DNA from: Eledone cirrhosa
Lineage: Eukaryota
NCBI GenBank assembly: GCA_964016885.1
Contig: OZ024745.1
Location: 133,982,001-134,046,000, forward strand
Length of the DNA stretch: 64,000 bases
Direction of reading: 5' to 3'
This document shows positions 50,155 to 52,190 of this stretch, piece by piece. The translations under genes and the position numbers were made by a program. Position 1 is the stretch's first letter. Each line of letters starts with the position of its first letter. The notes under the pieces are model-generated. The model was not told the origin of the DNA. It ran no database searches and was given only the letters and a program-made list of their open reading frames with translations.

Positions 50155-50453
50155 AAGAATAAGAAATGAGAAAGATTGAGGTGACGGGCGGGGTGGAATT
50201 GGAAAAAATGTTTTTAGAAAATGTTTGATATTGGCGTTTTGTGTATGATATATTTTTTTAGAAAAGTGGATGATGGAGTGCGTCTACACATATATATATA
50301 TATATATATATATATATATATATATATATATATATATATATATATATATATATATATATATATATATATATATATATATATATATATATATATATATATA
50401 TATAAAATAAAGTTAAATAAAAGTCAAATGATTAAAATTTAGCTTCGTTTATT

Positions 50454-50508
50454 ACTGCTATATATATTTCAGTGACAGCCATCTTTGGCTGTGACCTCTT
50501 CAGGCAGT
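50454..50508 (-). ncRNA. Minimal type I hammerhead ribozyme (left arm of palindrome)
   Basis: Reverse complement of 50739-50793. Confidence 0.9.
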
Positions 50509-50738
50509 TTGAATTAGTATGGTATAGACAAGTACATATGTTGTTTAGGTGTATGATATTGTCAATACTCTGATATGCCCAGTTCCTTGTTGGGTTGTTA
50601 ATTCACTGGGGAACTGGAGTCATATGACTCCAGTTCCCCAGTGAATTAACAACCCAACAAGGAACTGGGCATATCAGAGTATTGACAATATCATACACCT
50701 AAACAACATATGTACTTGTCTATACCATACTAATTCAA

Positions 50739-50793
50739 ACTGCCTGAAGAGGTCACAGCCAAAGATGGCTGTCACTGAAATATATATAGCAGT
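50739..50793 (+). ncRNA. Minimal type I hammerhead ribozyme (C-C mismatch class, right arm)
   Basis: ACTGC-CTGAAGA-GGTC ACAGCC AAAGAT GGCTGT CACT-GAAA-TATATA-TA|GCAGT. Confidence 0.9.
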
Positions 50794-52190
50794 AATAAAC
50801 GAAGCTAAATTTTAATCATTTGACTTTTATTTAACTTTATTTTACACTACTCCGGAGTAACCAAACCAACCTGCGCACTTCGTCGAGTGCTCCAGCCTGC
50901 ATACTGAGGTGTTGGTATACAACCAACATAAACTCAAAATATATATATATATATATATATATCAAAAGTATATATTGAGTTAAAAACTCACAATAGTCCC
51001 TTATAATTAAAATAACTCAAGGAAAATATTTTCCGAGCCTTATAATATAATAAAGAGAGGCAACCACAGGTATAAACATATATGCGTTCAAATCATAAAG
51101 GACGTAAACCGCCAGGTGAAGAAAATAATAACTAAGGATAATACGGTTTGCTAGACTCAATTAAAAGGATAAAAGATTTACAAACCGAATTATAACTATC
51201 AACATCCAGACAGCTTTGGGTAAAACTGTTTCACAATTAAGTGGAGAGTATATATCTGTCTTTGTCTCTCTTTATTATTATTATTATATATAAGGGTAGA
51301 AATGTATATATACACACACACACAGACACACACACACTCACACACACACACACACATATATATATATATATATATATATATATATATATATCGATGTGTG
51401 TGTGTTTGTGTGTTTATGTGTATATATATATATATATGTATAGATGTGTGTGTGTGTGTATATGTATATGTGATGGTATGTATATATGTATTTGTGTGAG
51501 TATATATATGAATGTGTGTGTCGGTGTTATATATATATATATGTGTGTGTGTCTGTTCCTATTTCTATGTGAGAGTTATTTTTGTATGTGTGTGCCTATC
51601 TTTCTCTGTTTTCTATTTTTTATTTTTTGTTTTCAATAGATCTTGTATGTTTGTATTTATATGTGTCTATGTATGTATATATGTGGGTGTATTTGTGTGC
51701 GTGTGTGTATGTGTGTATATTTACAGATGTGTGCATGTGAATGTATATATATATATATATGTGAGTTAGATACGGATTTATGTCTTTTTTGTTTATGTAT
51801 GTGTATATATATATATATATATATACAAGTGGAAGGTTAGTAAAATCGAAGTTATGGCGGTGGCCAAGCTAACCAGATACAATTAGGTTTACACAAAAGC
51901 ACTCAATACGGATGTATCGATGAATCAATAGGCTATACTTTAGAGTAATTAACATACGTTAGATAGCGTGACAAACTGAAAACTACGGCAGGCGGGCCTA
52001 GCTACATAATTCACCAAAACAACGAAAATATAATCAGGTTAGATAACGTATGGAAGGGCATTGTGCAATAACTCCGATAGGTTTCTATGAATCCAAAATC
52101 GACAATCCTAAATTTTATTCGTCGAAACACTGATTCTCCGTTTCTTATGTGATAATCTTGCAAAACAAATTCAAAAACGAATTTATATAT

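Follow-up and report, generated by a model that had tools for sequence, protein, structure and literature searches.

The perfect palindrome described here is one of hundreds of short stubs of a young Penelope-like element (PLE) in the genome of Eledone cirrhosa, and it is a recurrent by-product of insertion that is likely a dead end. It is probably built anew at each landing from two cDNAs, each primed at a different nick, one per strand, in a (TA)n target, which run to the predicted capped 5' end of the RNA and join head to head. All coordinates refer to the window, i.e., the whole stretch of 64,000 nucleotides that was analysed.

Positions 50403-50844 are identical to their own reverse complement and consist of two 221-nt arms, 100% alike, with no spacer between them. 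The first-pass annotation had described a 442-bp palindrome with 221-bp arms lacking any ORF, and both statements stand: reverse-complement identity is 100%, and no ORF reaching 90 aa overlaps 50403-50844. It had also taken these positions as the extent of the unit; the left edge holds, and the right edge was set too short, missing a 96-nt PLE tail (50845-50940, plus strand) that is present at 15/15 loci. The inverted, tail-less arm (50403-50625, minus strand) is the 3' part of a PLE pseudo-LTR (pLTR), with its 3' end at 50403 and a putative RNA start at 50625. The direct arm (50622-50844, plus strand) extends from a predicted capped transcription start (A 50622), where arm ends pile up, to the T-rich end of the pLTR. 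Both arms overlap in ATAT (50622-50625) within the turn point TCATATGA (50620-50627), which reads GAAT-TCATATGA-CTCC in the parent. The tail is where the 5' UTR of the following unit begins, and the parent ATG lies ~55 nt further on. The unit is embedded in (TA)n target tracts, at 50290-50402 on the left and, by sequence reading, at 50940-50962 on the right; in each of the 15 loci fetched both ends lie in (TA)n and the same tail is found at one arm only. More broadly, 50 of 63 foldbacks have an inverted arm that terminates no more than 4 nt from the end of the pLTR, and a single copy (L101) bears the tail at both ends. A MITE or foldback DNA transposon was considered and rejected, as symmetric TIRs are lacking, one end carries the 96-nt tail with a variable last base, and the sequence is that of a retroelement pLTR.

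Some tails run on into an ORF, and the source of these arms could be traced to an intact element. Arm plus tail (317/317 nt) are identical to the pLTR plus tail of copy L241, and the inverted arm matches the pLTR end of the ORF-bearing copies L241 and L242 at 221/221 positions, as does the window arm the L242 pLTR; the two are thus parts (pLTR and tail, respectively) of an intact element encoding RT and GIY-YIG. Five long open frames were fetched, two of which are intact from the start codon (892 aa in L241, 891 aa in L242). The first-pass reading of a very young, head-to-head, PLE-derived object was therefore borne out. The unit measures 4097-4152 nt in the order pLTR-tail-ORF-pLTR, often with an inverted copy upstream; this arrangement, with the hammerhead within the pLTR, is seen in L046, L047, L049 and L051. 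In L047 (352-1420, minus strand), fragments of a different PLE family adjoin the element.

Regarding classification, the single ORF of L241 contains an RT together with a GIY-YIG domain at its C-terminus, as expected of EN+ PLEs (LDIASYY, LYRDD and C-terminal LVY...YIG, read by eye), and has 43 homologs, mostly PF26215; a Pfam scan of two partial ORFs and a PDB search with the full ORF gave nothing significant. The N-terminal motifs RMRWK and ADKTNN of the Hydra clade are present, as is its CxCX5C linker (CNCRNPESC). The endonuclease is devoid of CCHH, a single cysteine separating its GIY block from its YIG block, and CKLCLNE and LIN...CRH provide CxxC and CxH beside E and N, as in the Hydra clade. 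Insertion into (TA)n and a canonical hammerhead also agree with this clade, and the size does not: the unit is ~4.1 kb, with a low-complexity ORF insert and a 1.3-kb 3' UTR, whereas Hydra-clade elements are generally <3 kb, a tendency rather than a rule in the accessible text of Craig et al. (2021, PMC8557442). Neptune and Nematis were discarded, since their CX2-5CxxC linker and endonuclease CCHH are not found in L241. By motif match to the definition in the available part of PMC8557442, the parent is best placed as a Hydra-clade PLE.

Each arm carries a complete type I hammerhead motif, at 50739-50793 (plus strand) and, mirrored, at 50508-50454 (minus strand), just where the first-pass annotation had located them. 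By motif reading, the core CUGANGA (CUGAAGA...GAAA), GAAA, UH and stems I and II are all in place: stem I is ACUGC/GCAGU, and stem II has 10 pairs with one C.C mismatch and a G.U replacing G-C at 10.1-11.1. Helix III is reduced to one pair closing a palindromic loop, whose AUAUAUAU is self-complementary, a form that works as a dimer. Core and stem I are intact in 236/257 arms examined. Rfam returned no hammerhead match at the gathering threshold or up to E=5, only generic hairpin matches, and its miRNA matches were dismissed as reflecting hairpin shape only. The predicted cut falls between 50788 and 50789. Of the turns that are near-symmetric around the ribozyme, 25 of 26 were scored, and the two positions flanking this cut, where GC also offers 2-nt microhomology, account for 16 of their 50 arm ends; these ends suggest occasional ribozyme cleavage in vivo. 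Since 26 loci turn around the ribozyme against 353 at the centre, most templates would be uncut. The folding energies calculated for the 221-bp duplex and the ribozyme fold are -391 and -16 kcal/mol, respectively. The hairpin RNA, siRNA precursor or ADAR substrate suggested by the first-pass annotation would require read-through transcription, and in such a transcript the duplex would be expected to block the ribozyme. We propose that both ribozymes are passengers of the duplicated pLTR. An 80-nt read pile-up over the ribozyme in run X22 was set aside, as it seems to stem from restriction fragments in the library. Two other PLE-type hammerhead motifs, of different families, are found in the window at 3793-3843 and 26979-27028 (plus strand). 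In both cases an AT-rich end and (TA)n come next, and neither motif has an inverted arm nearby.

Other repeats share the window. An open frame at 56069-56380 (plus strand) resembles the GIY-YIG end of another PLE, and a similar remnant, judged by eye, may be present at about 51830-52350. Remnants of one retroelement-like ORF form an inverted pair, 79% alike (47544-47823 and 55350-55629), and an 81-nt direct repeat, 99% alike, adjoins a microsatellite at each of its copies (49212-49292 and 49746-49826). A GC-rich minisatellite with 22- and 26-nt units occupies 46120-46932, and two open frames at 31707-32778 (minus strand) are like the remnant of a non-LTR retrotransposon.

The family is abundant in the 3.0-Gb genome. 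The tail 22-mer has 2241 exact matches, 824 copies read through the centre into longer sequence, near-symmetric turns at the same centre number 353, and the centre is exactly the same at 210 loci. All 40 of the places scored in the genome proved to be full 442-nt palindromes, 24 of them identical. Each locus has flanks of its own, without mirror symmetry, unique flanks being common to one haplotig pair only. Palindromes are but one outcome of insertion: among 89 tail sites, 63 are head-to-head foldbacks, 21 lack an inverted arm, four are internal junctions and one runs off the stretch. This sample comprises 89 of the first 100 sites on one contig (one chromosome arm), after leaving out one duplicate and 10 loci examined earlier; as seven of those 10 are exact-centre palindromes, the sampling understates the pile-up at the centre. 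Foldbacks turn at many positions, with varying junctions even at the same point; the tail-less arm is longer in 30 of the 63 and the tailed arm in 15, the remaining 18 being symmetric. Symmetric turns are located on short palindromes or hairpins of the parent (AAATTT, ACATATGT, TCATATGA and stem II). In two loci (L003 and L070), two family copies lie within one locus, separated by (TA)n or by ~2.4 kb.

Despite this variety, arms share a preferred stop. Among 73 arms reaching the start region, solo and asymmetric copies included, 34 end within 9 nt (positions counted on copy L166, with one base missing, whose -221 is window 50622), and the stop falls at a single base, 50622, common to solo and asymmetric copies. 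For this reason, an 8-bp palindrome acting alone as a hot spot was ruled out. There were 277 matches with a base added 5' of the stop, and a hand count of the first 100 gave 76 with G and 24 with A; other arm ends, a small control, gave 27 G and 38 A (Fisher p=1.5e-5). None of 30 extra-base cases inspected lies in read-through parent context, and of the 21 inspected cases with G, microhomology to the opposite arm could have provided the base in about 10. Filler or target junctions gave 10 G vs. 4 A, and in five of six filler junctions inspected both arms begin with G, the filler being mostly scrambled local sequence; a seventh region yielded no match. An extra G is what the copying of a cap leaves. 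Together with the initiator-bearing promoter described for the D. virilis element in the accessible part of PMC2377424, this cap-like base leads us to infer a capped RNA start at 50622. The match to the Inr consensus at this site is partial, and no DPE was found there. Folding of the parent shows that the direct arm opens with a natural imperfect stem-loop (50622-50674, plus strand), whose base lies at the stop; this structure could halt synthesis and is an alternative cause of the arm-end pile-up. Another, smaller group of arm ends (L105, L109 and L162) is found 15 nt upstream of the main stop and may mark a second RNA start.

The two arms of a locus are not independent. Across seven polymorphic sites, they are discordant in 5/163 site pairs, with ~43 expected, which suggests that both arms come from one source; one RNA molecule, one source locus or gene conversion fit alike. 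Rare variants are symmetric in 14 cases and one-armed in 76, the latter almost all private to a single locus. Fifteen unselected exact palindromes fall into three haplotypes (9, 2 and 4), all common among long arms, and perfect palindromes on three haplotypes of long copies point to de novo formation. In L212 and L213, the tail-less arm reaches the start, with its G, beside a tailed arm of <40 nt, so that the long tail-less arm was not copied from the tailed one. Target duplications were found in 20 of 44 informative foldbacks, being 14 nt long in 15 of the 20; the strict script scored none in the other 24, some of which are parsing offsets or complex loci. Between tail and target, 32/120 foldbacks carry a (TC)n run of 2-39 units, directly followed by (TA)n in 30, which suggests slippage at initiation, in the manner of telomerase-like stuttering; a TTTTA reiteration at the tail-less end was dropped, with 2/120 cases only. 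The idea that two RTs share an RNA and one gets in the way of the other was likewise abandoned, as short tailed arms are not clearly commoner than short tail-less arms.

Raw reads add to this picture. In runs X1 and X22, read depth changes stepwise at two places, the putative start and the end of the tail. Run X22, from another sample, contains strand-switch joints at the start and within 5 nt of it (3, 3 and 9 reads), and in run X4, under a second species label, both 3' ends abut (TA)n; the perfect junction itself was absent among the joints listed from the reads examined. Different pLTR alleles dominate in X22, which bears the same species label, so active subfamilies may differ between populations. 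Five runs under other species labels (X4 and X6-X9) hold at least half of the element's words, X4 and X7 matching closely, either through close relatives or through horizontal spread. The runs listed as containing the element include no RNA run, a result that has no bearing on whether it is expressed.

The two-cDNA account would run as follows. As the duplications indicate, the endonuclease would nick both (TA)n strands ~14 nt apart; one 3'-OH would prime at the pLTR end (50844) and the other at the tail end (50940), both on sense RNA of one source. With the RNA starting inside the pLTR at 50622, the cDNAs would run off after ~223 and ~319 nt, often gaining a C opposite the cap. Their ends, both ATAT, would then anneal to yield a spacerless palindrome, and a 4-nt ATAT overlap of cDNAs ending at 50622 gives exactly the centre seen in the window; other stop points would produce asymmetric foldbacks, although this asymmetry could partly come from later deletions. 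In vitro work on the Anolis PLE protein, in the accessible part of PMC11167929, showed cleavage and extension of both strands, with two start sites bounding the tail, and the protein is predicted to be dimeric. The two-primer account would extend that in vitro result and seems to us the simplest available; no published two-primer model was found in a literature search that reached few of the subscription papers.

A perfect palindrome taken alone is equally a product of snap-back, by which a short palindrome lets one cDNA or antisense RNA fold back on itself, copying then yields a hairpin, a staggered cut by the endonuclease leaving the tail on one side. This explanation, rather unlikely for the family, although some symmetric copies may have been made so, accords with symmetric turns that sit on short palindromes or hairpins of the parent and with the alleles shared by both arms, and it is already in print as antisense self-priming (Arkhipova et al., 2013, PMC3846280) and as "EN-mediated resolution" (PMC8557442), as far as the accessible text of both goes. 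It agrees less well with the 30/63 foldbacks in which the tail-less arm is the longer one, and which can bear the extra G beside a tailed arm of few bases; 0-1 nt between full arms, or two G-started arms around filler, would need loop-free priming, and on an antisense template stops at the predicted sense-RNA cap and at the ribozyme cut do not fit. We consider it quite improbable that the palindrome is instead a self-propagating, non-autonomous foldback element (a retrozyme), whose transcribed master would be re-inserted whole by the PLE protein. The exact centre at 210 loci and the identity of 24 of the 40 top matches would suit it, but identity among palindromes follows from the identity of intact parents; the three haplotypes are common with long copies, and, among 48 of the 210 loci, one-armed variants are nearly all private and common unique flanks were restricted to one haplotig pair. 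Moreover, solo copies are devoid of the ORF-start sequence that the Anolis protein needs, per the available part of PMC11167929. The "non-autonomous foldback retrozyme unit" proposed by the first-pass annotation finds no support, given that there are no tandem monomers, the three haplotypes recur in long copies, junctions vary and 63/89 tail sites fold back.

Later trimming, whereby insertions start longer or asymmetric and are reshaped by palindrome-driven deletion and gene conversion, with the pile-up at the centre as a survival effect, is very improbable. Central deletions and symmetric private variants do exist, but partner-less solo arms (L090, L102, L119 and L121) begin at the same base, DNA repair offers no source for the extra G, and one-armed variants outnumber symmetric ones (76 vs. 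14). Perfect spacerless palindromes are also a known type of artefact, and this resemblance is what an assembly or library foldback chimera has in its favour; such an origin is next to impossible, given that the structure recurs at 210 scattered loci, that its flanks are not mirrored, that it has a tail at one end only, target duplications and mismatches confined to one arm, and that strand-switch joints are also present in another sample's raw reads.

The two-cDNA reading can be set against known systems, most of them through the accessible parts of the papers cited. LINE-1 twin priming starts from two target nicks priming two cDNAs, joined by microhomology, the second primer annealing internally so that the 5' part is inverted without duplication; here, both cDNAs would start at the element's 3' end, which is duplicated in consequence. 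EN+ PLE units already described (PMC3846280, PMC8557442) share head-to-head inverted, 5'-truncated pLTRs, junction palindromes, a tail at one end, a microsatellite target and target duplications; their tails measure 30-40 nt vs. 96 nt here, and here a single turn point recurs at 210 loci. The origin of such inverted or palindromic insertions is attributed to antisense self-priming, as a hypothesis, in PMC3846280, and awaits an in vitro system according to PMC8557442, whereas our data point to two sense-templated cDNAs. In Schistosoma mansoni, opposite-strand minimal hammerheads 100-700 bp apart were read as truncated PLEs, also with a palindromic helix III needing a dimer (Cervera and de la Peña, 2014, PMC4209133); here, by comparison, parent, junctions and copy population are resolved, and 10.1-11.1 is G.U. 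Poseidon of Anolis carolinensis (Frangieh et al., 2024, PMC11167929) is alike in its two internal starts bounding the tail, in the cutting and extension of both strands and in its AT-rich target, and its template in vitro was mostly uncleaved RNA; in the accessible text of that study, both-strand priming is not tied to inverted copies and no reads end at the ribozyme cut, unlike some arms here. Non-LTR retrozymes (Cervera and de la Peña, 2020; Li et al., 2026, preprint) are also short and non-coding, with a type I hammerhead and a PLE pLTR origin, but are head-to-tail tandems with at least two same-strand ribozymes releasing a circle, in contrast to the head-to-head arms with one ribozyme per strand seen here. 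In this sense, inverted truncated pLTRs with a one-sided tail, junction palindromes and opposite-strand hammerhead pairs are known already, as the available portions of these papers document; as a by-product of PLEs the object is of an ordinary sort, its family is unusually informative, and what the family adds concerns mechanism.

The family amounts to a natural experiment: its young insertions number more than 2,200, its parent is intact, the sites of start and stop are fixed and the duplication measures 14 nt, and specific predictions can be drawn from these features. We are inclined, by a modest degree, to believe that two-headed TPRT is the normal integration route of EN+ PLEs, in which a dimer would let both nicks prime minus-strand cDNA on one RNA, from two starts and with no second-strand step, and that this family would record a capped start in the pLTR, ribozyme cleavage in vivo and telomerase-like, reiterative (TC)n synthesis seeding new compound microsatellites. 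If true, two-headed priming would account jointly for the inversion of pLTRs, the palindromes at junctions and the presence of a tail on one side. By implication, the element would keep seeding hundreds of perfect palindromes in its host genome, which could be fragile sites or sources of hairpin RNA.
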